From: an uncultured bacterium
Lineage (GTDB): Bacteria > Omnitrophota > Omnitrophia > Omnitrophales > Aquincolibacteriaceae
Assembly: GCA_964482725.1 (NCBI GenBank)
Contig: CAYZYT010000013.1
Span: 1,465-65,464, forward strand
Reading direction: 5' to 3'
DNA length: 64,000 nt
Shown: positions 1 through 55,097 of the stretch, piece after piece
Position numbering within the stretch: position 1 is the first letter of the stretch
Layout of the letters: the number at the start of each line of letters is the position of its first letter
The notes under the pieces: model-generated
What the model saw: the letters and a program-made list of their open reading frames with translations, nothing else
Database searches by the model: none
What the model was told of the DNA's origin: nothing
Translations under genes and position numbers: made by a program

Positions 1-3000
1 AATCCATGCCTTCCCAGTTCACACCCGCCTTGGAAAGCACCCCGAGATCCGACCAGTTCACGCCCGCCTTAGAAAGAACATCCATGCCAATCCAGTTCAT
101 ACCCGCCTTTGACATCACATTGAGATCCGACCAATTCACACCCGCCTGCGTCAAAACATTCAGGTCTGCCCAGTTCACGCCGGCCTTCGACAGAACATCC
201 ATGCCGGTCCAATTCACTCCAGACCGCGACATCACTTGAAGATCCGTCCAATTGACGCCCGTCTTCGAAAGAACATTCAGGTCCCCCCAATTCACGCCCC
301 CCACGGAGAGTGCCTGCATCCCGCTCCAGTTCACTCCGGTTCTGGACAGAACACCCACATCCAACCAGTTGACACCCGAACTCAACATGGCATTAAGATC
401 GCTCCAATTCAGACCCGCCTGGGTCAGAACGTTGAGATCCCCCCAATTGATCGCTGCTTTTGAAAGAGCCTTGATGTCTTGCCAATTCACGCCCGCGCGA
501 GAAAGCACCTGAATATCGTCCCAGTTCACCCCTCCTTCCGAAAGCGCCTGAATCCCGCTCCAGTTCACGCCCGCCCTCGACAGGACATCCATCCCGCTCC
601 AGTTCACTCCGGCCTTCGAGAGAACATCGATCCCGCTCCAGTTCATACCCGCTTTCGAAAGCACCCCCATATCCGACCAATTCACTCCGGCCCGCGACAT
701 CACATTGAGATCCGACCAATTGATCCCTGTTTCCGAAAGGACATTGAGATCCCCCCAATTCACTCCCGCTTTCGAAAGAACATCGATCCCGATCCAGTTC
801 ACGCCCGCCTTGGAAAGAACTCCCATATCCAGCCAATTCACACCAGCTTTTGACATCACATTGAGATCCGACCAGTTGACACCCCCCCGGGACAGAACAT
901 TCAGATCCGTCCAGTTCACTCCTGCCTTGGAAAGGATCCCCATATCAAGCCAATTCACTCCTGCCTTTGACATCACATTGAGATCCGACCAATTCACGCC
1001 CCCCGAAGAAAGCTCCTGGATCCCATTCCAATTCACCCCCGCCCGCGACATCGTCTGAAGATCTGCCCAATTCAAGCCTGCCCGCGTCAGCACGTTGAGA
1101 TCAGACCAGTTCACGCCAGCCTTAGAAAGGACATTAAGATCCGACCAGTTCACGCCGGACTTCGACAGCGCGCTCATATCCGACCAGTTCAAGCTGGCTT
1201 TGGACATGACATCCAGATCCGACCAGTTCACCCCGGCCCTTGAAAGAACATTCAAATCCGACCAGTTCACCCCAGCCCTTGAAAGAACATCGATGCCGCT
1301 CCAGTTGACTCCCATTTCAGACATCACATTAAGATCCGACCAATTCACGCCCGCTTTAGAAAGAGCGTCGATGCCGTTCCAATTCACACCCGCTTTTGTA
1401 AGTACTCCCATATCGAGCCAGTTGACCCCTGCTTTCGACATCACATTCAAATCGGCCCAGTTCACACCTCCCGCCGAAAGCGCCTGCATCCCGCTCCAAT
1501 TCACACCCGCTTTTGAAAAAACATTGAGATCCGCCCAGTTCACGCCACTTCGCGTGAGAACATTCAAATCCTCCCAATTCAAGTGAGCTTGGGTCAAGAT
1601 ATTAAGATCGGTCCAATTAATGCCCGCCTGGGATAAGGCTCCCATATCCAGCCAGTTCACACCGGCACGCGACAGCACATTTAGATCCGACCAATTCACA
1701 CCCGCTTTCGAAAAGATCCCGATGTCCGTCCAATTCACACCGGCGATCGACATCGCTTGGATCCCACTCCAGTTCACGCCCGCCTGGGAAAAAACATTTA
1801 GATCGGCCCAATTCACGCCGGCTCTTGAAAGAGCATCGATGCCACTCCAATTCACGCCCGCCTTGGAAAGCACCCCCATATCCAACCAATTCACACCCCC
1901 GACTGAAAACGCCTGGATCCCGCTCCAATTCACTTCCGCCCTTGAAAAAATATTAAGATCAGCCCAATTGATGCCCGCTTTGGAGAGAACATCGATCCCG
2001 GTCCAGTTCACGCCCTCTTTGGAAAGCACGCCCATCTCGGTCCAATTGATCCCGGCTTTAGACAATGAATCGATCCCGCTCCAATTCACTCCAATTCCCG
2101 AAAGGACATTGAGGTCCATCCAATTGACACCGGCTCGGGAAAGAGCATCGATCCCGCTCCAGTTGATCGCAACTTTGGACATAACACTAAGATCGATCCA
2201 ATTAACTCCGGCCCGGGAAAGGGCATCAATCCCGCTCCAGTTCATCCCCGCCTTAGAAAGCACACCGATATCCACCCAGTTCACACCGGCTTTGGAAAAA
2301 GAATCGATCCCGTCCCAATTCACACCCGCCTTCGACAATACATTTAAATCGGTCCAATTCACGCCCGATTTTGAAAGAATGTCGAAATCCGCCCAGTTCA
2401 CGCCGGCCGCCGAGAGCGCTTGCATCCCACTCCAGTTCACGCCCGCTTTCGAAAGCACATTAAAATCGGACCAATTCACACCCGCCTTCGAAAGCACATC
2501 GATACCGTTCCAGTTAACACCCGTTTTCGACAACACATTCAAATCGGACCAATTCACGCCCGCTACCGATATCACCTGAAGATCCGTCCAATTCACGCCC
2601 GCTTTGGAAATAGCATCCACACCGCTCCAATTCACACCCGCTTTTGTAAGCGCTCCAATGTCAAGCCAGTTCATACCAGCCTTCGACATCACATTAAGAT
2701 CTGACCAGTTAATCCCCCGGGTGGAAAGGGCATTCACATCGGACCAATTGATCCCGGCGTTCGAGAAAACACTCATATCCATCCAATTCACGCCCGCTTC
2801 CGAAAGAGCATCGATACCGCCCCAATTCACACCGGATTTTGAGAGAACATCGATCCCAATCCAGTTCACGCCCGCTTGCGAAAGAGCATCGATGCCGTCC
2901 CAGTTCACACCCGTGCGCGAGATCACCTGGAGATCCGTCCAGTTCACACCCGTCTTAGAAAGAACGCCCAAATCGGACCAGTTCACGCCCGCTTTAGAAA

Positions 3001-4915
3001 GGGCCTCCATATCGCCCCAGTTGACACCGGTCTGCGTCAACGTACTCAAGTCCGTCCAGTTAACACCCGCACGAGTTAAGACGTTGAGGTCCGCCCAATT
3101 GATCCCCTCTTTCGAGAGAATATCGAGATTTGCCCAGTTCACGTTGCCATCCGAAAGCGCCTGAATCCCGGACCAGTTCACACCGGCAGTCGAAAGGATA
3201 TCAAGATCCGCCCAATTCACTCCCGCTTTCGAAAGCACACTAAAATCGGACCAATTCACTCCCGCTTTCGAAAAGACTCCGATATCCAACCAATTGACTC
3301 CCGCTTGTGACATCACATTCAAACCGTCCCAGTTCACATTCGCGGAACTCATAACACGCATATCGGTCCAGTTCACATTGGCTTTTGTAAGCGCCGCCAA
3401 GTTATCCCAATTAATGGTCTCCGACCAATCGACATGAGCCCCGGTCATCTTCGCGAAATCATCCCAGTTCGCGCCGGCCTTGGACATACGTTGAATGTCT
3501 CCCCAGTTCACTCCCGCCTGGGACAGAACTTCGATATCGTTCCAGTTGATCCCAAGACTTGACATCCGTCCCACATCAAGCCAGTTCGTTCCGGCCACGG
3601 ACAAAGCCTCAATGCCGCTCCAATTCACCGCGGAAGCCGAAAGCGCTTCGATGCCGCTCCAGTTGACTTTCGCTTGACTCATTTTTGAAAGATCGGACCA
3701 ATTGACTCCGGAGACCGATAACAGGCCGAGATTTTCCCAATTGATCCCGGCCTTGGCCAAACGCCCGATATCTTTCCAGTTCACTCCCGCCAGCGTCAGC
3801 TGCTCGAGGTCAAGCCAGTTGATATTGGCCGTGCTAAACGACATGATCTCCGACCAACGGATGCCGGCCCTCGTCAGGGTCCGGACATCTTCCCAATTCA
3901 TACCTTTTGAGGACAACTCCGCGATATCATTCCAATTAACGCGAGCCTCCGACATCGCCTTCAAATCGTCCCAGTTCGCCTTGGCCACCGCGATCAAAAT
4001 ATCCCCGGTTTTTTTGTACAACGTCTCGGATTGGTTAGCTCCGACCGCGGTCTTGATCGCCTGGATATCCGACCAGTTCATGTCTTCCATTTTAGTTTTC
4101 ATCGAAGAAACATCCGTCTTGATCCCGGAAACATCCGAAGCCATCGAACCTGCCAGCGAGGGAGTAAGAACGTAGGTGCTCCTATAATTTGCACCCATAT
4201 AATTGATCTGGGTGGTAACGAGATACGAGGCATTCACATCGCCCGGGATCCAGGTTGACGAGAATACGCCACCACTGACAGCCGTGGCGGTTGTGAAGTT
4301 GAGACCCGAGTACGTACAGTCGCCTGGCACATAATCACCGTCGATCAGGATCTCGCGGGTTTGGTCATTCTCGTACCAGCTACTGACTGTAAAAGTGCCA
4401 TCGCTATAAGTCAGAACAGTCATCACATAGGTATGGTGATCCGCGACATTAAAAGCATCGGACGTGGCGGAGGTAAGGCCGGCGGCGCTCGCCTGCAGCG
4501 TATACATTTCTCCAGACTTATTCATGAACAAACCCTTCCCCGCGAAATCAGCCACGCCCCCGACGGCGTCCATGGTAATGGTACCGCCAAGCGTGGCTCC
4601 GGAGGGGTTGTTCGAAAGAGCCAGCGTAACGGTATTCGTCGCCGTCGCAAATAACTCATCATTCCCGTCCCGAATCTCCACAATGGGGTCTCTCGAGAAC
4701 ACCTGTCCGACAATTTGGTCTCCGGGATGAGCCGTAAAGACGAGGTGGGTGGGCACCTGCACGCTACCTTCCGCGGAAGAAGAACCCTCTCCGTCCCCGC
4801 CGGTGTAAATCGCGGCATTGCCTGTGTTCATTCCCAAAAAGAAAATAGCGGTCACCAGCCAGACCATGCTCCGGTAACCGGGATTTTTTTTATGGAAAAA
4901 GGAGAGGAAGCTCAT
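1..4915 (-). CDS. Giant secreted 13-aa tandem-repeat protein (partial; C-terminus beyond window start). Signal peptide + Ig-like domain + >100 'NWxD[LI]xx[LM]SxAGV' repeats
   Basis: Manual minus-strand translation from ATG at 4915: MSFLSFFHKKNPGYRSMVWLVTAIFFLGMNTGNAAIYTGGDGEGSSSAEGSVQVPTHLVFTAHPGDQIVGQVF... then ...MNWSDIQAIKTAV.., VNWNDIAELSSKGMNWEDVRTLTRAGIRWSEIMSFSTANINWLDLEQLTLAGVNWKDIGRLAKAGINWENLGLLSVSGVNWSDLSKMSQAKVNWSGIEALSASAVNWSGIEALSVAGTNWLDVGRMSSLGINWNDIEVLSQAGVNW... Open continuously down to ~3290 by hand; units sampled at 1-400 give the same frame (SDLGVLSKAGVNW, IGMDVLSKAGVNW, SDLNVMSKAGMNW). Strictly conservative substitutions (L/M, K/R, N/D/Q). Absent from ORF track because no in-window stop. 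Confidence 0.75.
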   Translation of the reverse strand, partial: MSFLSFFHKKNPGYRSMVWLVTAIFFLGMNTGNAAIYTGGDGEGSSSAEGSVQVPTHLVFTAHPGDQIVGQVFSRDPIVEIRDGNDELFATATNTVTLALSNNPSGATLGGTITMDAVGGVADFAGKGLFMNKSGEMYTLQASAAGLTSATSDAFNVADHHTYVMTVLTYSDGTFTVSSWYENDQTREILIDGDYVPGDCTYSGLNFTTATAVSGGVFSSTWIPGDVNASYLVTTQINYMGANYRSTYVLTPSLAGSMASDVSGIKTDVSSMKTKMEDMNWSDIQAIKTAVGANQSETLYKKTGDILIAVAKANWDDLKAMSEARVNWNDIAELSSKGMNWEDVRTLTRAGIRWSEIMSFSTANINWLDLEQLTLAGVNWKDIGRLAKAGINWENLGLLSVSGVNWSDLSKMSQAKVNWSGIEALSASAVNWSGIEALSVAGTNWLDVGRMSSLGINWNDIEVLSQAGVNWGDIQRMSKAGANWDDFAKMTGAHVDWSETINWDNLAALTKANVNWTDMRVMSSANVNWDGLNVMSQAGVNWLDIGVFSKAGVNWSDFSVLSKAGVNWADLDILSTAGVNWSGIQALSDGNVNWANLDILSKEGINWADLNVLTRAGVNWTDLSTLTQTGVNWGDMEALSKAGVNWSDLGVLSKTGVNWTDLQVISRTGVNWDGIDALSQAGVNWIGIDVLSKSGVNWGGIDALSEAGVNWMDMSVFSNAGINWSDVNALSTRGINWSDLNVMSKAGMNWLDIGALTKAGVNWSGVDAISKAGVNWTDLQVISVAGVNWSDLNVLSKTGVNWNGIDVLSKAGVNWSDFNVLSKAGVNWSGMQALSAAGVNWADFDILSKSGVNWTDLNVLSKAGVNWDGIDSFSKAGVNWVDIGVLSKAGMNWSGIDALSRAGVNWIDLSVMSKVAINWSGIDALSRAGVNWMDLNVLSGIGVNWSGIDSLSKAGINWTEMGVLSKEGVNWTGIDVLSKAGINWADLNIFSRAEVNWSGIQAFSVGGVNWLDMGVLSKAGVNWSGIDALSRAGVNWADLNVFSQAGVNWSGIQAMSIAGVNWTDIGIFSKAGVNWSDLNVLSRAGVNWLDMGALSQAGINWTDLNILTQAHLNWEDLNVLTRSGVNWADLNVFSKAGVNWSGMQALSAGGVNWADLNVMSKAGVNWLDMGVLTKAGVNWNGIDALSKAGVNWSDLNVMSEMGVNWSGIDVLSRAGVNWSDLNVLSRAGVNWSDLDVMSKASLNWSDMSALSKSGVNWSDLNVLSKAGVNWSDLNVLTRAGLNWADLQTMSRAGVNWNGIQELSSGGVNWSDLNVMSKAGVNWLDMGILSKAGVNWTDLNVLSRGGVNWSDLNVMSKAGVNWLDMGVLSKAGVNWIGIDVLSKAGVNWGDLNVLSETGINWSDLNVMSRAGVNWSDMGVLSKAGMNWSGIDVLSKAGVNWSGMDVLSRAGVNWSGIQALSEGGVNWDDIQVLSRAGVNWQDIKALSKAAINWGDLNVLTQAGLNWSDLNAMLSSGVNWLDVGVLSRTGVNWSGMQALSVGGVNWGDLNVLSKTGVNWTDLQVMSRSGVNWTGMDVLSKAGVNWADLNVLTQAGVNWSDLNVMSKAGMNWIGMDVLSKAGVNWSDLGVLSKAGVNWEGMD

Positions 4916-6501
4916 GACGCGGTCCTCGCGCAACGCCCGCCATAATCGGCTCCACGCGTCGTGTCGGCCGTGGCGGCTCGATCACGATCTGAAACTGCAA
5001 GCCGCACGACATCTGCGGAAGCAACAGACCAACCGCCGCCTTTCAAGCCACTCCCCACGGCATCGCTCAATCCCGGCCATGATTCATTGGCATCGCCTTG
5101 CGCAGTCAATCCGCCATCTCCGTGAGCTCCGTTAAACCCGCGGCCTTCTGAATTTCCGACAGTCACGACACGCTCCCACACATTTCCGGAAAGGTCCAGA
5201 TTGCCGTAATAACCCGCTCCCGAAGCAACGCGAGTCGTTGTGGAAGTCGTCGCAAAAATACCCACCCGAAGAGGACCGGTCCCCGACTCCGTAACGCCGG
5301 TAAAATTGACATTGCCATATAAAGCATTCGCACCGCTCGTGGTGATCGTTTCCCCGCCGGTCTCGGGCCCCGAAATCCCACTGCCCGCCGGTTTCATAAT
5401 GCTGTCATTGCCCCAGGCATATTCTCCCGCCACGGGAGCATTCCCCGCTCCGCGGCAGGCTTTTTCAAATTCAAGTTCCGTCATAGGTCTCAAACCAGCC
5501 CAGTCCGCATAGGCCGCAAGATCCATCCATGAAAGAAAACCGCAAGCTCGGGGCGAGCGCGTCGTCCGTGCGTCTCCAGACTCCCAAAAGATCGTATTTC
5601 GGCTCACCACGCCATCGCTGTTTTTCCCCGAAGCGGCCGTGATATCGCGCGTGGCCTTCTGAGTCGCGGTCAGTGTATTGAAAAAACCGACCCATTGCCC
5701 TTCCGAGATTTTATATTTCATCAGATAAAAAGGTGCATAACCTTTAGGGAACGCTGCCGCGAGCGGTCCCGCGCCGCCGATGCCACTCGGACCACCGTTC
5801 GACCAAAGGTTCCCCTCGACGGCGTTGATGGTAAGAGCTGCTTCCGAAGTAACCCGGTAAGGGATCGTAGCCCCATCGATCCACGACCCGTCCGTCAAAC
5901 TGTTCGATTCTGTTCCTCCGGAACCAACATAAAACGCCCCTTCAGGGATATAGACCATTTCGATTGCAAAAACATTGACCCGCGTCGACGTCGCACGAGC
6001 ATTCGCGTCACTCACACCATTCGCGGCATAATCCCAAACCAGTTTGATTCCGCTGGTGGAAACAGTCCCCGTCCCCGCACTCGAACGCCGGATAAAACAA
6101 CCCTTAAGATCCCCGGGGACCACCAGATCGATAGTCGTCCCGGTGCCGCGCTCAAAACCGGCGGGATTGGCGCCAGCAGTTTTGAGGATCGCGTGATGCC
6201 AAGAGGATCCGGAATCCGTGGAATATTTGACGAAAATCCAAACCGCATCATAATTGGCGGCATCGTACCAAGAGTTGTCCCACGAAATATTAAGACCGAT
6301 TTTTGCGGTATGGGTTCCGCTATCCTGATCCGCTACGACCACTCTGGAAACGCGTACATTATTGGCGAGAGCCGAAAGAGGAAAGGAGAGAACAAGGAGC
6401 GCTAAGGCCAAGGATATCTTCCAATTTCTTCCCCTGTCTAACTCCTTGCAGCAGAAGAGACTACCACCACTTACTTGTCTTAAAAAAGCTCTAAGCATCA
6501 A
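4912..6501 (-). CDS. FGE-sulfatase / DUF323 (SUMF1-like, C-type-lectin fold) domain protein with N-terminal signal/TM segment
   Basis: 529 aa ORF. Motifs VYIPEGAFYVGSGG, LMKYKISEGQWVGFF, GFLSWMDLAAYADWAGLRPMTELEFEKACRGAG, YAWGN, GNVWERV, GGGWSV match the formylglycine-generating-enzyme family. Stop TGA overlaps the start ATG of the downstream giant gene (ATGA). Confidence 0.8.
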   Translation of the reverse strand: MMLRAFLRQVSGGSLFCCKELDRGRNWKISLALALLVLSFPLSALANNVRVSRVVVADQDSGTHTAKIGLNISWDNSWYDAANYDAVWIFVKYSTDSGSSWHHAILKTAGANPAGFERGTGTTIDLVVPGDLKGCFIRRSSAGTGTVSTSGIKLVWDYAANGVSDANARATSTRVNVFAIEMVYIPEGAFYVGSGGTESNSLTDGSWIDGATIPYRVTSEAALTINAVEGNLWSNGGPSGIGGAGPLAAAFPKGYAPFYLMKYKISEGQWVGFFNTLTATQKATRDITAASGKNSDGVVSRNTIFWESGDARTTRSPRACGFLSWMDLAAYADWAGLRPMTELEFEKACRGAGNAPVAGEYAWGNDSIMKPAGSGISGPETGGETITTSGANALYGNVNFTGVTESGTGPLRVGIFATTSTTTRVASGAGYYGNLDLSGNVWERVVTVGNSEGRGFNGAHGDGGLTAQGDANESWPGLSDAVGSGLKGGGWSVASADVVRLAVSDRDRAATADTTRGADYGGRCARTAS

Positions 6502-6753
6502 CTGAACCTATCTCAATTTTGCGCATCCTGGGCGAAAGGCGCGCTGTTTTCAGAAATTCTTCGATGCGTCAATGAGCATTTTAACTTAACCTCAAATGGC
6601 TAAGCAACTTACACAATAATTATAGCATGAATCCCTCTTTGGTGTAGGAGAATTAGATAGATTTTTGTCAATACAATGGAGGATAAAAACTGCAGGGATT
6701 CTCAGATCAAAACTACCTAAAAAAAACAACGTAACTACATTGCCCTAAACAGG

Positions 6754-7680
6754 TTACATCTCTTTTTGCATTTTCTCGAAATCTCTCTTGAGAGGCTCAT
6801 CCGGCGCTACTCGAGACAATTGATTCAAATCCCAGAGCCGCATCCTGATTTTCTTAGACTCTTCACTCGGCGGTTTTAGATTCAGATATTGTTGATAATA
6901 GGTCCTCGCCTCGATTTGTTTCGCCAAATGATAGTCGTAAATAATAGCAAGATTATGATAAGCCCATGCCAATTTCGGATTCAGATGGAGGGCTTTTTTA
7001 TACTGACCGATCGCATCTTCGTATCGCCCAAGATCGTAATACACATTGCCAAGATCAAAACAGGCTCCGACCAGCTGATCCTTGAGGCTCAAATTTTCGG
7101 AATTCACCCCGGCCACCATCCCCACCGAATTTTTTACGGACTCTTCATTCTTTTTCGCAACGTCAATGATCCGGCTACGTTCCGGCTCCAGAACCGACTG
7201 GTTCAAAAGCCCTTTTAATTTTTCATTGGTGTCGTTCAACTCTTGATTTTTTGCTGTGATCTCCTGACGCTGGACCGCCGTATCCAGGCTGCCGCCTTCC
7301 AGCTTCGCGATCTCTTTGCGCGATGCCTCGAGCTCAGACTTCAGCGTTTCGACCTGGGAGCTGATCTCACGCTCTTTCGCACCCCCACCGCTCTGCGTTT
7401 GCTGGGCCTGTAGCGCAAGGTCGTTCTTCTCCGCGGTAAGCTTCTCATAAGAATCCTGGAGATCTCGCATATTCTGGCGAACCCTGCGGTTTTCCTTCAA
7501 AGTTTCATTCAACGTATATAATATTTTCTCGACATTTTGTCCTTCCGGAGTCGAGGGGCCGACAGAAGCAGGGTCCTTCTCCTTGGCCGCAAACGCCAAA
7601 TTCGCATTGAACCCCAAGGACAAAACCAACACGCCCAGCCCGAAAATCTGAAAACTTTTAGGGAAGAAATTCCTCGTCAT
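6754..7680 (-). CDS. Secreted coiled-coil + C-terminal TPR protein (possible secretin-associated / pilotin-like)
   Basis: 308 aa; N-terminal signal peptide; long heptad-rich region (LKSELEASRKEIAKLEG...); C-terminal TPR (YYDLGRYEDAIGQYKKALHLNP, AWAYHNLAIIY). Start overlaps secretin stop (ATGA). Confidence 0.6.
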   Translation of the reverse strand: MTRNFFPKSFQIFGLGVLVLSLGFNANLAFAAKEKDPASVGPSTPEGQNVEKILYTLNETLKENRRVRQNMRDLQDSYEKLTAEKNDLALQAQQTQSGGGAKEREISSQVETLKSELEASRKEIAKLEGGSLDTAVQRQEITAKNQELNDTNEKLKGLLNQSVLEPERSRIIDVAKKNEESVKNSVGMVAGVNSENLSLKDQLVGACFDLGNVYYDLGRYEDAIGQYKKALHLNPKLAWAYHNLAIIYDYHLAKQIEARTYYQQYLNLKPPSEESKKIRMRLWDLNQLSRVAPDEPLKRDFEKMQKEM

Positions 7681-9413
7681 CGCTGCGCCCTTTTAATGTC
7701 TGGTATTTTTTGCAACAAAGTCGCCGACCCATCCATGAGCGGTGGGGAGTAATCTCCACCCGTTCCTTGCTGCTTCCCCACATCAAAAGCCCCAATCCCA
7801 AGCATGCTGAGCGTATCCGTCGGCATACTTCGCGCCGACCGCGACGTAGGATTTCTGGTTTTGATCGCGATCGGCTCATCGAGATAATCTTCTTCTCCCG
7901 TCACAATGTGCGGAGTGATAATAACCGCGATCTCCGTTTTTTTGAAGCTCTCATTACGCGCCTTGAACATATGCCCCACGACCGGAATGTCCATCAAATA
8001 AGGGACTCCCTGATTACTCCGGGTCTGTTCATCCCGAATGAGCCCTCCCAACACCACCGAATTCCCATCTTGGATGATGACGGTCGATTCCACGAAAGTG
8101 GTATTCACTTTTGGGATCACGTTCTTAGTGGGCGTGACCAACTCACCGATCTGGCTTGAAATCTCCGGCCGGATCTTCATGGTCACAAAACCCTTGTCAT
8201 TAATGACGGGCGTCACCACAAGCACAAGACCGATGTCAATAAAACGGATGTCTTCACTGACGGAAACATTATTCCCGGTCCCCGTCGACGTGGTCACCAC
8301 ATACGGGATCCGGTCTCCGATGTTGATCTTTGCCTCCTCGCGGTCCATGATCATGACGCGCGGGTTCGCAAGCAACTTCGTATCCTCGATCTCCTTGACC
8401 GCTTTCAAATTAGCCGCGATCTCATCTGTCGCAAAATTCCCGACCACGATCTTTCCGAATTTCCCAAGGTTGGAGGCCGTAGTCTCCATGGGAAACGAAC
8501 TTGCAATGCTCGAATTGTCGAGCCTCCGAAAGACCTTTTGCCAATCGATCCCCCAATTGTATTTAGGATTGAGCGTGAGCTGCAGGATTCTTGTTTCGAC
8601 CATCACGGCCCGGGTCTGCCGGTCGAGCGCCTTGACAAGCCGGACCGCTTGCTCCATCCGTTCAGGATACGCGCTGATCATGATCTGGTTCGACCTGACA
8701 TCCGCCGCGACCGTCCCGACCCCTTTCCCGTCGATCTGCGGTTTCAGCTGCGCCGCAATGTCCTCCGCTTTCGCAAATTGAAGCTTGATCACTTGCGTGG
8801 CAATGTTGTTCTCCACTTGATCCAAAATGGTGTTCATCTGCATCAACTTCTCCGCAGTGTCGATCATCACCACCGTCCCTGCGTCTTCGTCGATAATGAC
8901 TTTCCCGATCGCGCTCTGAATGGATTGCAACGTCGCAAGCACGTAGCTGGGTTTGGCGGTTTTCAGCGTACGGATCGAGATCTTCCGGTTGTCATTGAAA
9001 GTTTTACCGTGCGTTAACGCGTACTCATCTTCGGTCATGATGAGAATGATGCCGTTCCGGATCTGGTAGGCAAGCTGGTTGGAAATGACCAGAATATCCA
9101 ACGCATCTTTGATCTTCACGTTTTTCAGCAACAAAGTCGAACGTCCCTGGACATTGCGACTTGTCACAATATTAAGGCCCCCTTGAACTGCGATAAACTT
9201 GAAAACATCAATGACATTGATATCGCGAAGATCGAGGAAGATCGTTTTTTCAAGGCCGGATTGGGGATCCTTGGCGGCGGCCACTGTCCCCGGAGCTTTG
9301 TCTTCTGGAAAAGCGCTCGGAGCCACAGGGAAACTCGCCGCGATCATGACGGCCAGCAGCACCTTGCCCAGCTTAGAAAATTTCTCTCGCTTTCCCATAG
9401 TCGCGTTTCTCAT
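7677..9413 (-). CDS. Secretin (GspD/PilQ family outer-membrane channel)
   Basis: C-terminal secretin domain: LLANPRVMIMDREEAKINIGDRIPYVVTT..., VTPVINDKGFVTMKIRPEISS, VPYLMDIPVVGHMFKARNESFKKTEIAVIITPHIV. N0/N1-like domains upstream. Start chosen at the MRNATMGKREK methionine just after the upstream stop. Confidence 0.85.
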   Translation of the reverse strand: MRNATMGKREKFSKLGKVLLAVMIAASFPVAPSAFPEDKAPGTVAAAKDPQSGLEKTIFLDLRDINVIDVFKFIAVQGGLNIVTSRNVQGRSTLLLKNVKIKDALDILVISNQLAYQIRNGIILIMTEDEYALTHGKTFNDNRKISIRTLKTAKPSYVLATLQSIQSAIGKVIIDEDAGTVVMIDTAEKLMQMNTILDQVENNIATQVIKLQFAKAEDIAAQLKPQIDGKGVGTVAADVRSNQIMISAYPERMEQAVRLVKALDRQTRAVMVETRILQLTLNPKYNWGIDWQKVFRRLDNSSIASSFPMETTASNLGKFGKIVVGNFATDEIAANLKAVKEIEDTKLLANPRVMIMDREEAKINIGDRIPYVVTTSTGTGNNVSVSEDIRFIDIGLVLVVTPVINDKGFVTMKIRPEISSQIGELVTPTKNVIPKVNTTFVESTVIIQDGNSVVLGGLIRDEQTRSNQGVPYLMDIPVVGHMFKARNESFKKTEIAVIITPHIVTGEEDYLDEPIAIKTRNPTSRSARSMPTDTLSMLGIGAFDVGKQQGTGGDYSPPLMDGSATLLQKIPDIKRAQR

Positions 9414-9414
9414 T

Positions 9415-10092
9415 TTAGTGAATTTCCACCGTATCTTCGCCCGATGAGAGGACCACATGATCCTCAAAGATCTTTGAGACTTTTAGAAGCCCGACCGGAT
9501 CTCCTTCGCGAAGGAACGTCGTGATCCCCTTCTGAACGTCCTCAATCATGCAAAAAACCTTTTTCGGATCCGCTGGATTATAAGAGATCCCGGTCAGCTT
9601 CAGGGTCTTCGTCATGTCAACGAGCTTTGAAGACTGCTCCTTTTCAAGCTTCTGGGCATCCTCCGCACGCTTGTTATACGGCATGAACATCTTTCCAAGA
9701 TCCCAGCTTTCGATCGGCTCAACTTCCTTGGCCGGCTCACTGACCGGCGGAAGCTCCAGCATCTTGGGCTCGGAATTTTCAATCGCCCCGATAACATCCT
9801 TCTTGAGATCCATCGCTCCCAACAAAAGGACCGTAATGAACGCCACCGCCAACAGGGTGACCAAGTACCGTAAGATCCGGTTCAATTCTTTAACGCCAAA
9901 GGAAGTCCTGATCCGTTCCAGGGCATCGTTCGATGTTTTAAGAAATCGGTCTTTCAGCGCCCCTGCAGAAAATCGAGCGCCCTGCTGAACTTTTTTAGCC
10001 CCGGCATCAATATCTTTTTGATGAGCGCTCGGCTCCTCAATGAGATCCAGAAGCCGCTTTTCCGGCGTTAATGAGGAATCTGGCTGAGCCAT
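9415..10092 (-). CDS. Bitopic membrane protein, GspB/ExeB-like (hypothetical)
   Basis: 225 aa; cytoplasmic N-terminus, one TM helix (LRYLVTLLAVAFITVLLLGA), periplasmic C-terminal domain. Sits between the ExeA-like ATPase and the secretin with overlapping ends. Confidence 0.45.
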   Translation of the reverse strand: MAQPDSSLTPEKRLLDLIEEPSAHQKDIDAGAKKVQQGARFSAGALKDRFLKTSNDALERIRTSFGVKELNRILRYLVTLLAVAFITVLLLGAMDLKKDVIGAIENSEPKMLELPPVSEPAKEVEPIESWDLGKMFMPYNKRAEDAQKLEKEQSSKLVDMTKTLKLTGISYNPADPKKVFCMIEDVQKGITTFLREGDPVGLLKVSKIFEDHVVLSSGEDTVEIH

Positions 10093-10940
10093 CCGGCACG
10101 CATTTCCTCGGAAACGATTTCCTCGATAATCTCCTCATCTACGATCCACTTCCGTTTCATCACGAGCTGTTTCAAAGACCGGTGACAAAGCATGGTGATC
10201 TTTCGGGGATACCCCTGGGAGATCTTATGGATCATTTCTATAGCGTCGTCCTGAAAAAGCCGGACGTTCGAGCAATAATTCGCCTGCCGGATACGAAAAA
10301 GGATCATCTCCCGGGTCTCGTCCAAACTCAAAGGGTTCAAAGTGTATTTAAAACTGATCCTATCCATAAAATTCGGGATCTTCATGATCTTGGAGTGAAG
10401 CTCCAACTGTCCGAAAAGAGCCAGCTGCAAGAGCTTCGTGTCGTTGGTCTCATAATTCAGGATCACACGCAACATTTCCATCGAAGCTTCATTGAGCTTT
10501 TGCGCTTCGTCCACAATAAGCACCACGGTCTTATTGCCGATAACGGTTTTCTCATAAAGGAACTTCTCCACCGCCTCTTTGAGGTCCATCACGCTCGGAC
10601 GGCTCCCCTCCATGCGACTGCCGGTATATTGATCCACATTGATGGAAAAGTTCCGGACCAGGGAATAAAGAAATTCGTATTCGTTCTCAAAACAAGGGTC
10701 CAAGACATAATGGACAATAAAGTCCCCGCGCTCCTTGAGCGATTGGATCAACTTGCGGGAAAGCGTGGTCTTTCCGGTCCCGACATCCCCCAACACCACG
10801 GACAATCCGCGCCGCAAACGCAACTCGATCAGGACGTTCGTAAGCGTCGCCTGGTGCCCTTGCGACAAGTAGAGGAATTCAGGATCCGGGCTTGTCGAAA
10901 ACGGCTCCTTTTCGAATCCCAGCATGCGGTAATAGCTCAT
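10068..10940 (-). CDS. ExeA/GspA/MshM-family AAA+ ATPase (secretin assembly factor)
   Basis: MSYYRMLGFEKEPFSTSPDPEFLYLSQGHQATLTNVLIELRLRRGLSVVLGDVGTGKTTL (Walker A), VVLIVDEAQ (Walker B). Typical ExeA N-terminus. The ORF track extends further upstream (11012); internal Met taken as start. Confidence 0.8.
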   Translation of the reverse strand: MSYYRMLGFEKEPFSTSPDPEFLYLSQGHQATLTNVLIELRLRRGLSVVLGDVGTGKTTLSRKLIQSLKERGDFIVHYVLDPCFENEYEFLYSLVRNFSINVDQYTGSRMEGSRPSVMDLKEAVEKFLYEKTVIGNKTVVLIVDEAQKLNEASMEMLRVILNYETNDTKLLQLALFGQLELHSKIMKIPNFMDRISFKYTLNPLSLDETREMILFRIRQANYCSNVRLFQDDAIEMIHKISQGYPRKITMLCHRSLKQLVMKRKWIVDEEIIEEIVSEEMRAGWLSQIPH

Positions 10941-11118
10941 GGATCTCCTCGTCTTGACTTTGACACGTCCAAAGACAATTCGCCTGGGGACTTTAGTGCC
11001 AAAAAACCTCACACTATGTTTCGGCTGTTCCTCTGAAATCTATAGGGGTCCCTTTAAGAGGGGGCGGGGTTCACCGGAAGAGGGGGGACGCTTACAAAAC
11101 CATCCTTGGAAAATATTC

Positions 11119-13093: not shown

Positions 13094-13630
13094 TCAAAAA
13101 GGGCCGGATCCTTTGAACCCATCAAAAAGATTCCGTACATCTCCTTCCGCGGAACGCGTGATCTGACCGCAAATAAAGATCAGCACCGAGAACTGCCAGC
13201 AATCCTCCGGGCCGATCACAAGCCCGGTCGAAACATTCTCTTGCCGCTCCAGCGCATGCGAAAAAAATTCCACGGCTTTCGCAAGCTTCTCCTCGCGAAT
13301 ATCCAACGACTCTATTCTATTCTCATATTTCATGGAAGGGAAGCGGATACCACGCACCAAAAGAAAGGTCGTCAGATAATCCTCCACCCCCGAGAACTTC
13401 TTATCGAATTCAAACCCTTCGAATTGCGGCAGATGCGGCGGCAAAATAATCGAGGGCTTTTCGACCGTGACTTCTCCTTTTCGCACCACCGTGTCGCCGT
13501 GGTTGACCGCAGACTCCGCCAAAAAAACATAAGGGATCTGCGTCGCCTCAAACGTCTGGAGCGGTTGAACCCGAGGTCGGATGATCTCGGTGGCTTTCAG
13601 TGCTTTCTCCCAGGAATCGTGGATGTCCAT
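13094..13630 (-). CDS. Hypothetical protein
   Basis: 178 aa ORF, no recognised motifs. Preceded by the GAGAC/GTCTC hairpin element. Confidence 0.5.
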   Translation of the reverse strand: MDIHDSWEKALKATEIIRPRVQPLQTFEATQIPYVFLAESAVNHGDTVVRKGEVTVEKPSIILPPHLPQFEGFEFDKKFSGVEDYLTTFLLVRGIRFPSMKYENRIESLDIREEKLAKAVEFFSHALERQENVSTGLVIGPEDCWQFSVLIFICGQITRSAEGDVRNLFDGFKGSGPF

Positions 13631-13644
13631 TTAAAAGGCTTCCT

Positions 13645-13712
13645 CAGACTACAGACCAGAGACTTGGGACTAGAGACAAGACATTAAGTCTACGGTCTCC
13701 AGTCTCGGGTCT
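13645..13712. repeat. GAGAC/GTCTC-rich intergenic hairpin element, copy 1
   Basis: ccagagacttgggactagagacaagac...gtctccagtctcgggtctcttgtcc. Related to the element at 27896..27960 (shared ccagagac and gtctctagtc blocks). Confidence 0.5.
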
Positions 13713-13734
13713 CTTGTCCTGATCGCGATAGCGA

Positions 13735-14175
13735 TCAATAAGAAATCCCATCCGGCAATTCGTTCTTATCATTCGCTTGATAAGGAAAATAGGTTTTTAG
13801 CTTCTCTCCGATACGAACCACCGCTTCCGAAATACCCTCGGCAAACTTATTCTCCTTGAAATGCTCTTGCATGATCTGGACCACATCGTTCCAGAATCCT
13901 TCAGGAACTTTTTCATTGATCCCGACATCCCCCAACACCGCGAACTTCTTGTTCCTGGTCGCAAGGAATATCAGGACTCCGTTCCTTTGGGCGGTCTTCG
14001 TCATCCCGATCTTCTGAAAGACTCTCTGGGCGTGACCGTACACAGGCTCGTGGGCGTTATATTCCAGATGCACGCGGATCTCTCCGGATGTGTTTTTTTC
14101 CGCATCCTGGACTGCGGCAAGAATCTGTTTTTTCTCTTTTCCCGACAAAAAGAACATCGGATAAGTTATACGCAT
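13735..14175 (-). CDS. TPM-domain protein (TLP18.3/Psb32/MOLO-1 phosphatase fold)
   Basis: 146 aa; GEIRVHLEY..., VLIFLATRNKKFAVLGDVGINEKV pattern typical of the TPM domain. Adjacent to LemA. Confidence 0.65.
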   Translation of the reverse strand: MRITYPMFFLSGKEKKQILAAVQDAEKNTSGEIRVHLEYNAHEPVYGHAQRVFQKIGMTKTAQRNGVLIFLATRNKKFAVLGDVGINEKVPEGFWNDVVQIMQEHFKENKFAEGISEAVVRIGEKLKTYFPYQANDKNELPDGISY

Positions 14176-15727: not shown

Positions 15728-17473
15728 CTAGTAATTTGTGTTGAACGAGAAATGAAGCTGAGACTTCCCGGCTTCCGTGATCGGTTTGTCCCCGAGAGGA
15801 ATACCCCACTCAAGACGCGCCGAAAAATCCTTCCGGAAACGAAGCTCAAAACCACCTCCGACACCCAGCAGGAAATCAGACCGGGGTTCTCCGGAACTCG
15901 CATTGGGATCATGCGTTCGTCCGTAACCCATATCGCAAAAAGTGATGATGCTGAGCTGATCCTTCAGAGGGAGGGTGTCAAAAGGAAGTTTCCAGTGATC
16001 GGGTAAGCCATAGACCGGCAGCATGTAATCAAATCGCGACTGAAAACCCTCGTCCGCTCCATAATCGCTTTCAGGATAACCACGAATAGAACGGGCACCG
16101 CCCAAGAACAACTGCTCCTGAGGCAAAAGCTTGTCCGGCGAGAACTGCCCCTGGACATCCCAGATCGCTTTGGTGCGCCATGGCAATTGCGTGAGGCGGG
16201 TTAGCGAATAGGTGTACTTAAAAAAGGACTGCACACCGCCACGGCTCGCAAGGGCCCAATCATCGGGAAAGGTCGGCAGCCCAAAATAAATGCCCTGCCC
16301 CAATCCCCAACCGCCCCAACGATCGCGGGCCTGAAAGTCTCCTTTGAGCGATATCACGCGCTCCTTATCCCATACCGTAGTAACACTTTGCGTCAAGGTA
16401 TGCTTTTCCTTAAAATCAAACCCGAACTGGACATTGCCAGAATATTTTTCTGTGCGGATCACCCGCTGCTGCAAGCCCAAGCTGTAAACTTCGGAAGTTC
16501 CGTTAATGCCATAGATCGAAAACTCTTTCTTGGGATTGACTTGCGCGTGACTGATCGACCAGATAAATTTCGTTCCAAAATTCGAGACCGGGATCACATG
16601 ATAAAGATAAAGAGCCCCAAAGGCTTTGCCAAAGGTCGTCCCGATCAGGAACGTATCGTCAAGCCCTAGCATATTATTGTTCCGGATCGTGAACCCTTGA
16701 CGATCCTTCCCTGTCAGCTTGACCCCTTGGTTATCGAAGGAGTAGCCCAAGTGAAGGGGAAAATGATCTTCGACATCCAACACCACATCCGTCGTCCCTT
16801 TTTCAGCGCCCGCTTTAAGAACCGGCTTCACGGTCCGGTCAGGATTCTCGTTCATGTTCATGACATTCTCACGGATCTTATCGTAGCGGAGAACCTCGCC
16901 CTTGCGGATCTTCCAGTAGGATCGCGTGCGCCATTTGCTGTAATAGCGATTCTTCTCGATTGAAAGCTCTCCCATCCTCGAAGTCACCGCCTTGAGATGG
17001 ACCTCCTGGTTTTCCATTTTTTGGGGTGGGAGCAGAACGACCGCAATATAGCCCTTCGCGCGATACATTTGTTCAAGGGCATTGATAAGCCTCTGAAGTT
17101 CATCAAAATGAACTTCCCTATTCTCATATTTAACGAAAAGCGGCTCGTACTCTTTAGGATCGAGCATCATATCCCCTTCGAGGACGATCTTTTTGATAAA
17201 AAAAGAAGGACCTGTCGCCGGAGCTTCTGGGAGAGGCTCCTCCTCGAACGCTATGGGTTTGGTCGCTTTGGGTTGGAATAATTTCTCGCGGGCTTGATCA
17301 TCGATCTTGGATAACTGGACGGCGGCAGAAGCTCCAAAATTGCCGATCCGGTCTTCACTGGCCGCGAAGAGATGCCCGCTCTGGGCAAGGAAGCCCACAG
17401 AGAAAAAGAGAACGCCTAAAGACAAGATCTTAACTTTGAGTCGGCTCATAGGAGAAAAGACGACACTTTCCAT
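15728..17473 (-). CDS. ShlB/FhaC/HecB-family two-partner-secretion outer-membrane transporter (TpsB)
   Basis: 581 aa; signal peptide; POTRA region (FIKKIVLEGDMMLDPKEYEPLFVKYENREVHFDELQRLINALEQMYRAKGYI); C-terminal beta-barrel ending ...SQLHFSFNTNY with aromatic terminus. Confidence 0.75.
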   Translation of the reverse strand: MESVVFSPMSRLKVKILSLGVLFFSVGFLAQSGHLFAASEDRIGNFGASAAVQLSKIDDQAREKLFQPKATKPIAFEEEPLPEAPATGPSFFIKKIVLEGDMMLDPKEYEPLFVKYENREVHFDELQRLINALEQMYRAKGYIAVVLLPPQKMENQEVHLKAVTSRMGELSIEKNRYYSKWRTRSYWKIRKGEVLRYDKIRENVMNMNENPDRTVKPVLKAGAEKGTTDVVLDVEDHFPLHLGYSFDNQGVKLTGKDRQGFTIRNNNMLGLDDTFLIGTTFGKAFGALYLYHVIPVSNFGTKFIWSISHAQVNPKKEFSIYGINGTSEVYSLGLQQRVIRTEKYSGNVQFGFDFKEKHTLTQSVTTVWDKERVISLKGDFQARDRWGGWGLGQGIYFGLPTFPDDWALASRGGVQSFFKYTYSLTRLTQLPWRTKAIWDVQGQFSPDKLLPQEQLFLGGARSIRGYPESDYGADEGFQSRFDYMLPVYGLPDHWKLPFDTLPLKDQLSIITFCDMGYGRTHDPNASSGEPRSDFLLGVGGGFELRFRKDFSARLEWGIPLGDKPITEAGKSQLHFSFNTNY

Positions 17474-21446: not shown

Positions 21447-22133
21447 CTAATACTTAATGCAGTAAACCACCGCCCGATTTTTGGGCCGAGTTTCTGTACC
21501 GCCCGTCCCCTCCGTAGTACCCCCTTGTCTTCCATAATGGACCGTAGAACCACTCGAGAAATAAAAGACAGGACTGCTTGTCCCCCATATAGCGCCGTTT
21601 GCAGTATGCGCATGTGATTTGAAATCATCGGTTTGGATTGACCCGAGGGTCCGTGTCGCGACGTCAGGGTCCACCCCGCCCAATCCGCGCAGGAAATAAC
21701 CGCGATAATCCGGAAGATTAAATGTGGAACTTCCGTCGCCCGTTCCATGGGTCGTCCCAATAGCGGCAAAAAGAGCCGCGTAGTTCGATCTTGATACCGC
21801 CGCGCCGTTACAAACCAGCCATCCAGACGGAGCCGCGGACATGGCAAAAGCCGAAACCATACCGGGAGGATTCCCGCCTGTGGTTCCCCAAGAGCTTCCA
21901 TCGCAAACCTGAACCTGATTGGTCGAGGAATCGTAGTACATCATCCCTTCTGCCGCGGCATTACACACGGGCTGTGACTTCGGAACAAGCTTGAGGGTGT
22001 TACTCTGCAACGTATCATACTCTCCCATGGGTGCGGGATAGTAAGTCGTCAGCTCCACTTTCCCGGCATACACGGACGGCGTCATCGCCAGAACCCAAAC
22101 GATCAAGCTGAATAAAACCGTGTTTTTAAACAT
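21447..22133 (-). CDS. Secreted phage tail-collar (MdpB-like) domain protein, paralog B
   Basis: Signal peptide + GKVELTTYYPAPMGEY; C-terminal LVCNGAAVSRSNYAALFAAIGTTHGTGDGSSTFNLPDYRGYFLRG...ETRPKNRAVVYCIKY matches the tail-collar / microcystin-dependent-protein fold. Confidence 0.75.
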   Translation of the reverse strand: MFKNTVLFSLIVWVLAMTPSVYAGKVELTTYYPAPMGEYDTLQSNTLKLVPKSQPVCNAAAEGMMYYDSSTNQVQVCDGSSWGTTGGNPPGMVSAFAMSAAPSGWLVCNGAAVSRSNYAALFAAIGTTHGTGDGSSTFNLPDYRGYFLRGLGGVDPDVATRTLGSIQTDDFKSHAHTANGAIWGTSSPVFYFSSGSTVHYGRQGGTTEGTGGTETRPKNRAVVYCIKY

Positions 22134-50848: not shown

Positions 50849-51655
50849 TCACCGTTTCCCAGGCCGCTCCAAAACTTTCCCTCGAAGCCTCACGACATCC
50901 CCAACGACAAAAATCGCCGGTGCCACCAGCTTGGCGGCTCGGGCTTTTTTCACAATATCACGCAAGGTCCCAACAATCACACGTTCCTTGGGCGTGGATC
51001 CATTTTCAATGGCCGCGCACGGAGTTCCTCCGCTTCGCTTCTTCAAGATCTGCCTCACGGTCTTATCAAGATCGGAGACGCACATGACATAAACCAAAGT
51101 GTCGACATTAGGAACCGGGATGGGATCATTATCTTCCGTCACGTGTCCCGACGCGACCGCCAGGGTCATGGCAAGATAACGCTGCGTCAACGGGATCCCG
51201 GCTAAGGCTGGCACAGCAAAAACAGAGCTCACCCCAGGCACCACCTCGACATCGACGCCACGCCCCCTCAGGAAAAGGATCTCCTCTCCCCCGCGACCGA
51301 AGACATACGGATCGCCGCCTTTAAGCCGCGCGACTTTGTTTCCTTTCAAGGCTTCCTGAAACAAGAGTTCATTAATGGCGTCCTGGGAGAGCGAGTGGGC
51401 CCCATGTTTCTTGCCGACCGAAATGAGACGAGTAGAGCGTTTTAATTTTTGGAGTAACGCATGCGGCACTAGGTGATCATAAAGCACCACGTCCGCAGCT
51501 TTGAGAAGTTCCAGGCCCTTCACCGTGATGAGCCCCGGATCCCCGGGCCCCGCGCCGATAAGAAAAACTTTTCCGGACTTACCGCGAGTTTTCTTGTTTG
51601 TCATCGGTTGGATTGGAAAAGTTCCGTCATGGCCGGAAGATCGAAACGTTCGCAA
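50849..51655 (-). CDS. cobA: Uroporphyrinogen-III C-methyltransferase (siroheme branch)
   Basis: GKVFLIGAGPGDPGLITVKGLELLKAADVVLYDHLV. Confidence 0.85.
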   Translation of the reverse strand: MRTFRSSGHDGTFPIQPMTNKKTRGKSGKVFLIGAGPGDPGLITVKGLELLKAADVVLYDHLVPHALLQKLKRSTRLISVGKKHGAHSLSQDAINELLFQEALKGNKVARLKGGDPYVFGRGGEEILFLRGRGVDVEVVPGVSSVFAVPALAGIPLTQRYLAMTLAVASGHVTEDNDPIPVPNVDTLVYVMCVSDLDKTVRQILKKRSGGTPCAAIENGSTPKERVIVGTLRDIVKKARAAKLVAPAIFVVGDVVRLRGKVLERPGKR

Positions 51656-53166: not shown

Positions 53167-53305
53167 CGAATAGATCTCCTTTACCCCGTTAGAGATAGGA
53201 AGCGCTTATCAAAGCGCTTCCGTAAACTCAACATATTCTTTTTAAAATCGTCCTCGCCATAAATCAAATAACAACGAATTGCTTTACATTGATCTCTAAC
53301 GGGGC

Positions 53306-55096: not shown

Positions 55097-55097
55097 A

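Follow-up and report, generated by a model that had tools for sequence, protein, structure and literature searches.

A secreted protein with an FGE fold and no FGE active site is paired with a short N-terminal motif of a giant repeat protein in Omnitrophota

The window analysed here is a stretch of 64,000 nucleotides from an uncultured bacterium of the phylum Omnitrophota (assembly GCA_964482725.1, contig CAYZYT010000013.1, positions 1,465 to 65,464 of the forward strand). On its minus strand, a gene whose product resembles the formylglycine-generating enzyme (FGE) is directly followed by the gene of a giant repeat protein. The analysis supports a functional pair formed by these two genes: they remain adjacent at 25 or more Omnitrophota loci, and elsewhere the FGE-like gene stands beside other partners. 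Reading from the sequences, we propose with moderate confidence that the FGE-like protein is a secreted, non-catalytic protein, made of a beta-sandwich and an FGE fold, which would dock in a ratio of about one to one on the motif YxGGxxDG at the mature N-terminus of the downstream protein. This likely target was not foreseen in the preliminary description of the window. The features on which the argument is built are the following, all on the minus strand.

4912..6498, minus: FGE-like gene, 528 amino acids, ATG at 6498 and stop codon TGA at 4912-4914, with a match to PF03781.
6364..6498, minus: predicted Sec-type signal peptide of the FGE-like protein, residues 1-45 (...LSFPLSALA/NN, where the slash marks the cut), from a reading of the -3/-1 rule.
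5941..6357, minus: N-terminal beta-sandwich domain, residues 48-186, with the signature SWxNSWRxxxNxDAAWVFxKY...WxH.
4915..5940, minus: FGE-fold (C-type-lectin-like) domain, residues 187-528, without the catalytic cysteine pair.
4912..4915, minus: ATGA overlap of the FGE-like stop codon (TGA, 4914-4912) and the giant start codon (ATG, 4915-4913).
1..4915, minus: 5' portion of the gene for the giant repeat protein, which runs off the edge of the window after 1638 codons or more.
4814..4915, minus: predicted signal peptide of the giant, residues 1-34 (...LGMNTGNA/AIY), from the same kind of reading.
4775..4813, minus: predicted mature N-terminus of the giant, AIYTGGDGEGSSS, which carries [FYW]xGGxxDG; residues Y37-G44 correspond to 4784-4807.
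2..4096, minus: 13-residue NW repeats with consensus LSKAGVNWSDLNV, about 100 copies in the window.

The preliminary description had placed the FGE-like gene at 4905-6501. The gene is indeed present on the minus strand, and its end is at 4912; the open reading frame (ORF) spans 4912..6501 if it is read from a TTG, and the ATG is at 6498. The only Pfam domain in the 528-residue protein is PF03781, FGE-sulfatase, which covers residues 256-526 (E=8.5e-16, 58.8 bits), and matches to the FGE fold were also obtained in fold comparisons. An AlphaFold2 (AF2) model computed from an alignment of the family (pLDDT 90.2, pTM 0.89) divides the protein into a signal peptide (1-45), an all-beta sandwich (about 48-186) and, over residues 187-528 or so, an FGE fold, which in the family closes with ...GGRxxRT; at the N-terminus the model has helices of low pLDDT. 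The signal peptide ends in LSALA/NN and has no lipobox cysteine, and both N46 and the junction A.ANN are almost invariant in the family alignment. Neither Pfam nor NCBIfam has a model for the N-terminal domain. A Foldseek comparison with viral structures gave no meaningful match (best E=2.6e-4, TM 0.14).

More than 4856 proteins match the FGE-like protein, mostly over their full length and at about 50% identity; in this initial listing, those carrying a taxon name are Candidatus Omnitrophota or Omnitrophica. An exhaustive search with a hidden Markov model (HMM) yields 2199 clusters (50% identity) at E<=1e-30. Full-length homologs, 40-45% identical, are found both in cultured Bacteroidota (Kordia, Algibacter, Jiulongibacter, Lewinella and Winogradskyella) and in genomes that carry the labels Verrucomicrobiota, Lentisphaerae, Kiritimatiellia, Ignavibacteriae, Elusimicrobia and Bdellovibrionota, where the taxon labels of metagenome-assembled genomes are those deposited. 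Some members of the family reach 700-1800 amino acids: the shared module stands at the N-terminus, followed by Pro/Thr linkers and by extra domains such as Lcl_C, Laminin_G_3, NHL, FG-GAP, DUF285, Fib_succ_major, PKD and PT-HINT. These architectures are those of extracellular surface proteins.

The solved FGEs 6s07, 5nxl and 2aii were aligned with a profile built from 121 members of the family. The cysteines that bind Cu(I) in FGE (human C336/C341; T. curvata C269/C274, within FLCHESYCNRY) occur at neither position in any of the 121 members, and the window protein lacks them as well: their positions fall on columns that vary between Asp, Glu, Ser and Thr for one, and between Ala, Thr, Gly and Ser for the other. 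Across 86 diverse representatives, no conserved cluster of Cys or His was found in the FGE domain, and the match to the solved enzymes is weak and confined to the structural core WAGxRLPTExEWE. The substrate side is equally empty. There is no [CS]x[PA]xR site, and in particular none of the C/S-x-P-x-R targets that the preliminary description had envisaged, in the 1638 amino acids of the window giant or in the first 3317 of its ortholog at another Omnitrophota locus (L004; such numbers designate comparison loci). The giant has 1 Cys in 1638 amino acids, and the L004 ortholog 0 Cys in its first 3317. Finally, no sulfatase was found among the window ORFs scanned, a set of 41 that comprises the 7 nearest genes, 10 ORFs between 13 and 23 kb and, of the 24 ORFs between 26 and 64 kb that reach 250 amino acids, 20; four ORFs of that size in 56.9-64 kb, and smaller ORFs, lie outside the set. 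A genuine formylglycine-generating enzyme, activating a sulfatase or modifying the giant at C/S-x-P-x-R, has in its favour the Pfam match and the automatic names assigned by JGI and NCBI; set against the cysteine pair missing in 121 of 121 members, the weak match to solved FGEs and a giant with no target motif and almost no Cys, we rate its chances as negligible, and canonical FGE is rejected. The preliminary description had left the choice between a maturation enzyme and a binding partner for the giant: a binding partner fits the data better, and the canonical chemistry of the former does not survive the loss of the cysteines.

The other automatic label fares no better. An NCBIfam scan of the FGE-like protein (E<=0.01) reports only weak matches to SenA and EgtB, with HMM scores of 15-17 bits against cut-offs of 360-420. 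An enzyme of the EgtB/OvoA/SenA type is rejected, as the N-terminal domain is an all-beta sandwich and not a DinB-like domain with its His triad. No match to GldJ or GldK was reported by the same scan at E<=0.01; models for both are, we presume, present in NCBIfam. An ortholog of PorK is rejected as well: the protein has no lipobox, and the genes beside its own encode an ATPase, a secretin and a TPR protein instead of proteins of the PorL/M/N type.

The pairing with a motif is the central observation. The pattern [FYW]xGG lies within the first 110 amino acids of the downstream gene in 58 of 82 non-redundant loci, against 31 of 640 for the remaining ORFs at these loci (Fisher p=3.5e-43, with an odds ratio of 47). 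About 10 of the loci scored as negative have a gene with a signal peptide and the motif one or two genes away, or upstream. In the window, the stricter pattern [FYW].GG..[DGE]G has a single match in all six frames of the 64 kb, and this match is at the N-terminus of the giant, where the sequence around the motif is A35-I-Y-T-G-G-D-G-E-G; the peptide with the motif, including Y37, G39 and G40, is AIYTGGDGEGSSSAEGS. According to a reading of the -3/-1 rule, the aromatic residue would fall at positions +2 to +4 of the mature partner. Omnitrophota giants start alike: GNA/AIYTGGDGEGSSS in the window, AQA/AIYTGGSYDGSSS in L004 and VYA/QYTGGGYDGSSS in L015. The pairing extends over Omnitrophota, isolates of Bacteroidota (Kordia, Algibacter, Jiulongibacter and Lewinella), Verrucomicrobiota, Lentisphaerae, Ignavibacteriae and Elusimicrobia.

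At the Bacteroidota loci examined, the next gene downstream encodes a protein of 270-535 amino acids that is different from the giant. After the signal peptide, these partners start with Q-YTGGIDDGSDYS, Q-FNGSNGDGFD, Q-YWGGEADGYS and Q-FGGGGGDGLD, and then repeat [LY][FY]xGGxGDG[FY] every 25-29 residues. Three of the four end with a C-terminal sorting domain of type IX secretion systems (T9SS), and the partner in L041 has a GCX_COOH domain. In the partners examined, these C-terminal domains are all that Pfam and NCBIfam recognise; no model matches the motif region.

One further fact about the motif concerns the FGE-like protein itself. Residues 455-462 or so (window 5113-5136) read F-N-G-A-H-G-D-G, a segment that is conserved in the family as F-x-G-(T/A)-H-G-D-G and is similar to the motif of the partner, [FY]-x-G-G-x-G-D-G; the likeness could be fortuitous, or reflect a shared turn or Ca-binding element. 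Among 269 family proteins (P0001-P0120 and P0162-P0309), no natural fusion of the FGE-like module with the motif was found, the matches to the regular expression being mostly this internal segment or RGG segments.

The number of motifs follows the number of FGE-like genes. This count was made in Omnitrophota only. Each of the six loci with one FGE-like gene (window, L001, L004, L008, L015 and L048) has one motif, and 19 loci (17, plus L038 and L012) have two tandem FGE-like paralogs and two motifs, 18-19 amino acids apart. The Omnitrophota cassettes show no exception. Such strict matching implies a specific, one-to-one recognition, and it constitutes an unusually clean genomic signature of it. 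In a neighbour-joining tree, most of the upstream (A) and downstream (B) paralogs fall into separate clades, with the window copy inside a B clade; the duplication is therefore old, and has been kept along with the duplicated motif.

Some loci depart from the simple layout. In L038, genes for a GIY-YIG-like protein and a 92-residue protein (13294-13899) stand between the second FGE-like paralog and the giant, which keeps its two motifs. Three or four tandem paralogs are present at some loci of Verrucomicrobiota and Sphingobacteriaceae (L080, 5006-12970; L064, 6357-11530), and the downstream protein of L080 begins with WFLGGSYDGYD after its signal peptide.

There are, however, several points that weigh against docking. 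At about 13 of the 82 loci, no partner lies within the DNA examined. Number matching shows specific recognition and does not separate binding from modification. In Bacteroidota a single FGE-like gene adjoins a partner with 4-10 repeats of the motif, and this one-to-many ratio fits equally well a multivalent docking and an enzyme acting on repeated sites. The Trp/Asn/Asp/Arg signature of the N-terminal domain could bind a glycan instead of a peptide. Lastly, the FGE-like protein has only a Sec signal, so that export beyond the periplasm would need piggy-backing on the partner.

Foremost among the alternatives is a maturation enzyme with another chemistry, which would modify YxGGxxDG, for example at Tyr/Phe or at Asp, in the periplasm before export, the A and B paralogs each being specific for one variant of the motif. 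The ratio seen in Bacteroidota suits it. Such an enzyme, however, would not need to be duplicated each time the motif is duplicated; the family shows neither a conserved Cys nor a His triad, nor any other site recognisable as binding a metal or supplying a nucleophile, the iron site of EgtB-type enzymes being in the DinB domain that a beta-sandwich replaces here. In addition, the module is found fused to adhesin-type domains, as a binding unit would be, and its sequence diverges quickly. We consider this alternative unlikely.

The pace of divergence can be read from a comparison of the window with L004. Identity is 96% for the AAA_22 ATPase encoded in the upstream cassette described below, 79% for the secretin, 77% for the NW repeats, 74% for the protein of about 225 residues and 71% for the TPR protein; it falls to 55% for the FGE-like protein and to 45% for the N-terminal region of the giant, the fastest-evolving parts of the locus. 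Fast divergence of both partners is expected of parts that interact and are exposed at the surface. The comparison also bears on a third possibility, a component of the secretion apparatus: a periplasmic ring or pilot on the secretin, in the manner of PorK and GldK, with the motif of the giant as a mere export signal. A component of this kind should hardly evolve so much faster than the secretin, and the family is still accompanied by its motif partner in phyla with no secretin close by; both facts make it quite improbable.

Returning to docking, the sequence of events could be as follows. The FGE-like protein and the giant would be made from one transcription unit, given the promoter and leader (6499-6627) and the overlapping genes. 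Both carry predicted Sec signal peptides and would meet in the periplasm, where the FGE-like protein would bind the N-terminal motif of the giant non-covalently. The complex would then leave, probably through the dedicated secretin encoded just upstream, and the FGE-fold protein would serve as the head or adaptor of a fibre, either an adhesive tip or a cap or anchor, rather than as an enzyme.

Going further, one can imagine that the module made of a beta-sandwich and a dead FGE domain forms, together with the motif, an unrecognised docking pair akin to cohesin and dockerin, used to build surface structures in several phyla. In Bacteroidota and Ignavibacteriota, a T9SS-anchored scaffold with 4-10 motifs would display lectin-fold modules, some of them bearing adhesin or enzyme domains; in Omnitrophota, a micrometre-scale fibre of NW repeats, exported by a private secretin, would carry at its N-terminal tip one or two fast-evolving heads that recognise a host or a prey. 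This wider picture is tentative: possible, and somewhat short of probable.

The giant itself is built of a signal peptide, about 270 non-repeat residues, and then the 13-residue repeats. Its start at M1 is supported by residues 1-16 (MSFLSFFHKKN.GY.S): L001 and L008 conserve them, and the changes seen are in part synonymous and in part conservative. Orthologs are called at 7153 amino acids in L004 (contig CAZSFZ010000001.1) and at 4166 in L007. A search for homologs with the N-terminal 330 amino acids returned only Ig-like fragments of at most 578 amino acids, and no full-length giant.

The repeat region has no match in Pfam. Spacing from one NW to the next is exactly 13 in 98 of 101 cases; the N-W pair is invariant, and a stronger super-period of 26 residues is seen. 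From one locus to another, identity of the repeat region is 60-82% inside the clade of the window and 35-54% across more distant Omnitrophota cassette loci. An AF2 model of 18 repeats, for which the alignment was made from the window's own repeats, is all-beta with a period of 26 residues and a mean pLDDT of only 61. One long and one short strand per 26 residues in this low-confidence model are suggestive of a beta-solenoid.

We now turn to the junction between the two genes and to the region upstream of them. Three features are needed here, on the minus strand like those above.

6502..6753, minus: AT-rich spacer that separates the FGE-like gene from the TPR gene, 252 bp, with a G+C content (GC) of 0.35-0.39.
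6499..6627, minus: extended -10 box TGCTATAAT (6627-6619) and a leader of about 115 nucleotides, from an alignment of the window, L001, L008 and L004.
6754..7680, minus: gene of the TPR protein, the last of the cassette before the spacer (Pfam TPR families; a weak match of the PilW/Tgl kind, NCBIfam PilW, E=1.6e-6, below the family cut-off).

The ATGA overlap described earlier is exact (4912-4915, minus strand), and an AGGA lies 7 nucleotides upstream of the giant ATG. The same overlap is seen in L001-L003, so that the translational coupling proposed in the preliminary description would hold for these loci and the window; it is not conserved in L004, L006 and L007, where gaps of 21-48 bp separate the genes, nor in L008, where an insertion of about 170 bp splits the junction. 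Translational coupling by ATGA is local to the clade of the window, and what is conserved is co-directional adjacency. The insertion of L008 (4478-4650) coincides with the ATGA junction. It has the direct repeat CAGGAC(C)GCGCCATGA on its flanks and the inverted repeat GGACTGCCCCAA...TTGGGACAGTCC inside; it has the look of a small element of the type of miniature inverted-repeat transposable elements (MITE) or repetitive extragenic palindromes (REP), and it uncouples the FGE-like and giant genes. No credible terminator-like site was found between the two genes, the region 4500-7000 yielding 2 such sites against 2.6 expected from shuffles.

The AT-rich region 6502-6753, which had been taken for the operon promoter, does stand out: its GC of 35-39% compares with 52% in the window and about 56% in the FGE-like gene. 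Its last 130 nucleotides or so are near-invariant in the window, L001, L008 and L004, though the FGE-like protein of L004 is only 55% identical. Since a scan for the sigma-70 consensus gave no more sites than shuffled sequences, the promoter call rests on the conservation of TGCTATAAT across loci. TTGACA at 6671-6666 was considered as a -35 element and rejected, being 41 nucleotides away from the -10 box. The conserved box and leader, which are restricted to the clade of the window, support the FGE-like and giant genes as their own transcription unit in the window; L005 contrasts with this layout, its first FGE-like gene overlapping the TPR gene.

Nothing in Rfam matched 4400-7200 at E<=1. RNAalifold predicts that GCAUCGA of the leader pairs with UUGAUGC across the FGE-like start codon, with an alternative partner, GAUGCGC, upstream; compensatory changes affect only two pairs of the predicted stem. 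The leader could be a clade-specific element of translational control.

The C-type-lectin fold of the FGE-like protein also raises the prospect, mentioned in the preliminary description, of a variable protein whose C-terminal surface is diversified by a diversity-generating retroelement (DGR). A sensitive blastn search with 4881-5300 found only itself in the 64-kb window, which excludes a second copy there that could serve as a template repeat, and no reverse transcriptase (RVT family) is among the 41 scanned ORFs. Diversification should be visible as hypervariability at the C-terminus. Comparison of the 8 closest homologs (76-93% identity) gives 0.70-0.82 for the last 48 residues and 0.58-0.90 for other parts of the mature protein: the C-terminus is as conserved as the rest. 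Homologs in all loci examined moreover share a fixed context without DGR components. On the evidence of the 64 kb and of these relatives, a DGR target is rejected, and we hold it for very improbable.

Upstream of the spacer and the TPR gene, three more genes complete a cassette.

7677..9467, minus: secretin of the PilQ/GspD type (Pfam Secretin, E=4.4e-47, and Secretin_N).
9415..10092, minus: 225-residue protein without a domain call; its position is conserved in the cassettes, and a faint GspC-like match (E=8.6e-5) is far below the cut-off.
10068..11012, minus: AAA_22 ATPase, ExeA/GspA-like or PEP-CTERM-system-ATPase-like (Pfam, 1.1e-20; TIGR03015, 8.4e-49, below the cut-off).

In NCBIfam, the secretin matches PilQ (9.5e-66) and GspD (1.5e-63), each below its equivalog cut-off. 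The conserved order is AAA_22 ATPase, protein of about 225 residues, secretin, TPR protein, one or two FGE-like genes, and NW-repeat giant; it was found at about 25 non-redundant Omnitrophota loci, out of 80 loci fetched from GTDB species genomes. A secretin with Secretin_N domains, an accessory ATPase and a TPR protein are features of a secretin-based export cassette. No gene for GspE, GspF or a pilin was seen among the scanned ORFs of the window, and the cassette is for this reason not a complete type II secretion system (T2SS). Loci outside Omnitrophota carry no secretin cassette beside the FGE-like gene.

Three other regions of the window can be mentioned. At a distance of 10-16 kb upstream of the cassette are a two-partner-secretion transporter of the ShlB/FhaC type (POTRA_2 and ShlB; 15728-17473, minus strand), beside which no TpsA-like cargo gene was identified, and a 228-residue protein with a phage tail collar domain (21447-22133, minus strand). 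Farther away, at 50849-55979 on the minus strand, is a cluster for assimilatory sulfate reduction, with a PAPS_reduct-domain protein (CysD/CysH-type), a CysN/APS-kinase-like GTPase, a sulfite reductase and a uroporphyrin methylase. Although the Pfam family of the FGE-like gene bears the word 'sulfatase' in its label, this cluster has no relation to that gene.

The giants of Omnitrophota are a current puzzle, and their functions are mostly deduced from domain content. A small, well-folded and readily expressed partner, together with the motif of about 10 residues that it most likely recognises, would give a biochemical handle on a widespread class of long fibres. There is also a matter of annotation: a family of about 2,200 clusters is now automatically named 'formylglycine-generating enzyme' or 'SUMF1/EgtB/PvdO nonheme iron enzyme', and both labels are unsupported because the family has neither the active-site cysteines of FGE nor the N-terminal domain of EgtB.

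Comparison with known systems starts with FGE itself. With respect to SUMF1/FGE and its inactive paralog SUMF2/pFGE, the FGE-like protein lacks both a Cu site and a CxPxR substrate, bears an extra domain at the N-terminus and has another genomic partner. Closer in spirit are PorK, GldK and GldJ, of type IX secretion and gliding (PDB 9mzu), which likewise have a cysteine-less FGE fold; there the fold serves as a protein docking hub, and the old substrate groove is now a protein-protein interface (PMC12421860). The FGE-like protein differs from PorK in that it is not a lipoprotein, has an extra N-terminal beta-sandwich undescribed for PorK, and lacks the partners PorN, PorL and PorM, having instead a link to a secretin in Omnitrophota and a short N-terminal motif as partner. 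It would be a second, independent case, after PorK/GldK, of an FGE fold reused without catalysis in a secretion context. The variable proteins of DGRs (TvpA, 2y3c; TaqVP, 5vf4; Mtd, 1yu0) share the fold too, and likewise put it to use, on secreted or fibre-tip proteins, as a surface that binds ligands without enzymatic activity, but neither the scan of the window nor the close relatives show a retroelement, a template repeat or a hypervariable region.

The T2SS-like loci published for Omnitrophota (West-Roberts et al. 2023, bioRxiv 10.1101/2023.11.21.568195; 2026 preprint 10.64898/2026.06.07.730766), where genes of type II/IV secretion adjoin giants, likewise have a very long secreted protein with a secretin cluster directly upstream. 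Those clusters exceed 10 genes and include GspE, GspF and pilins; their giants have transmembrane helices, SecA-like domains or dockerin domains; the cassette of the window, in contrast, is a minimal set of four genes (ATPase, protein of about 225 residues, secretin and TPR protein), after which come one or more FGE-like genes. Both texts are free of the terms FGE, formylglycine, sulfatase and SUMF1. The NW repeat is not among the repeat classes given in the available portion of 10.64898/2026.06.07.730766, and the portions available of the two papers contain no mention of an NW-repeat fibre. In the literature searched, no description of the pairing of an FGE-like protein with a motif protein was found.

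By analogy only, cohesin and dockerin offer the nearest picture: a scaffold has one to ten short sites, each of which may be bound by a separately encoded module, and some of these modules have extra functional domains. The FGE-like protein and the motif have no relation of sequence or fold to that pair. In sum, the reuse of an FGE fold for a non-catalytic role in secretion was already known; the novelty lies in the cognate motif at an N-terminus, in the matching of paralogs and motifs, in the connection to a minimal secretin cassette and to a giant fibre, and in the occurrence across several phyla.

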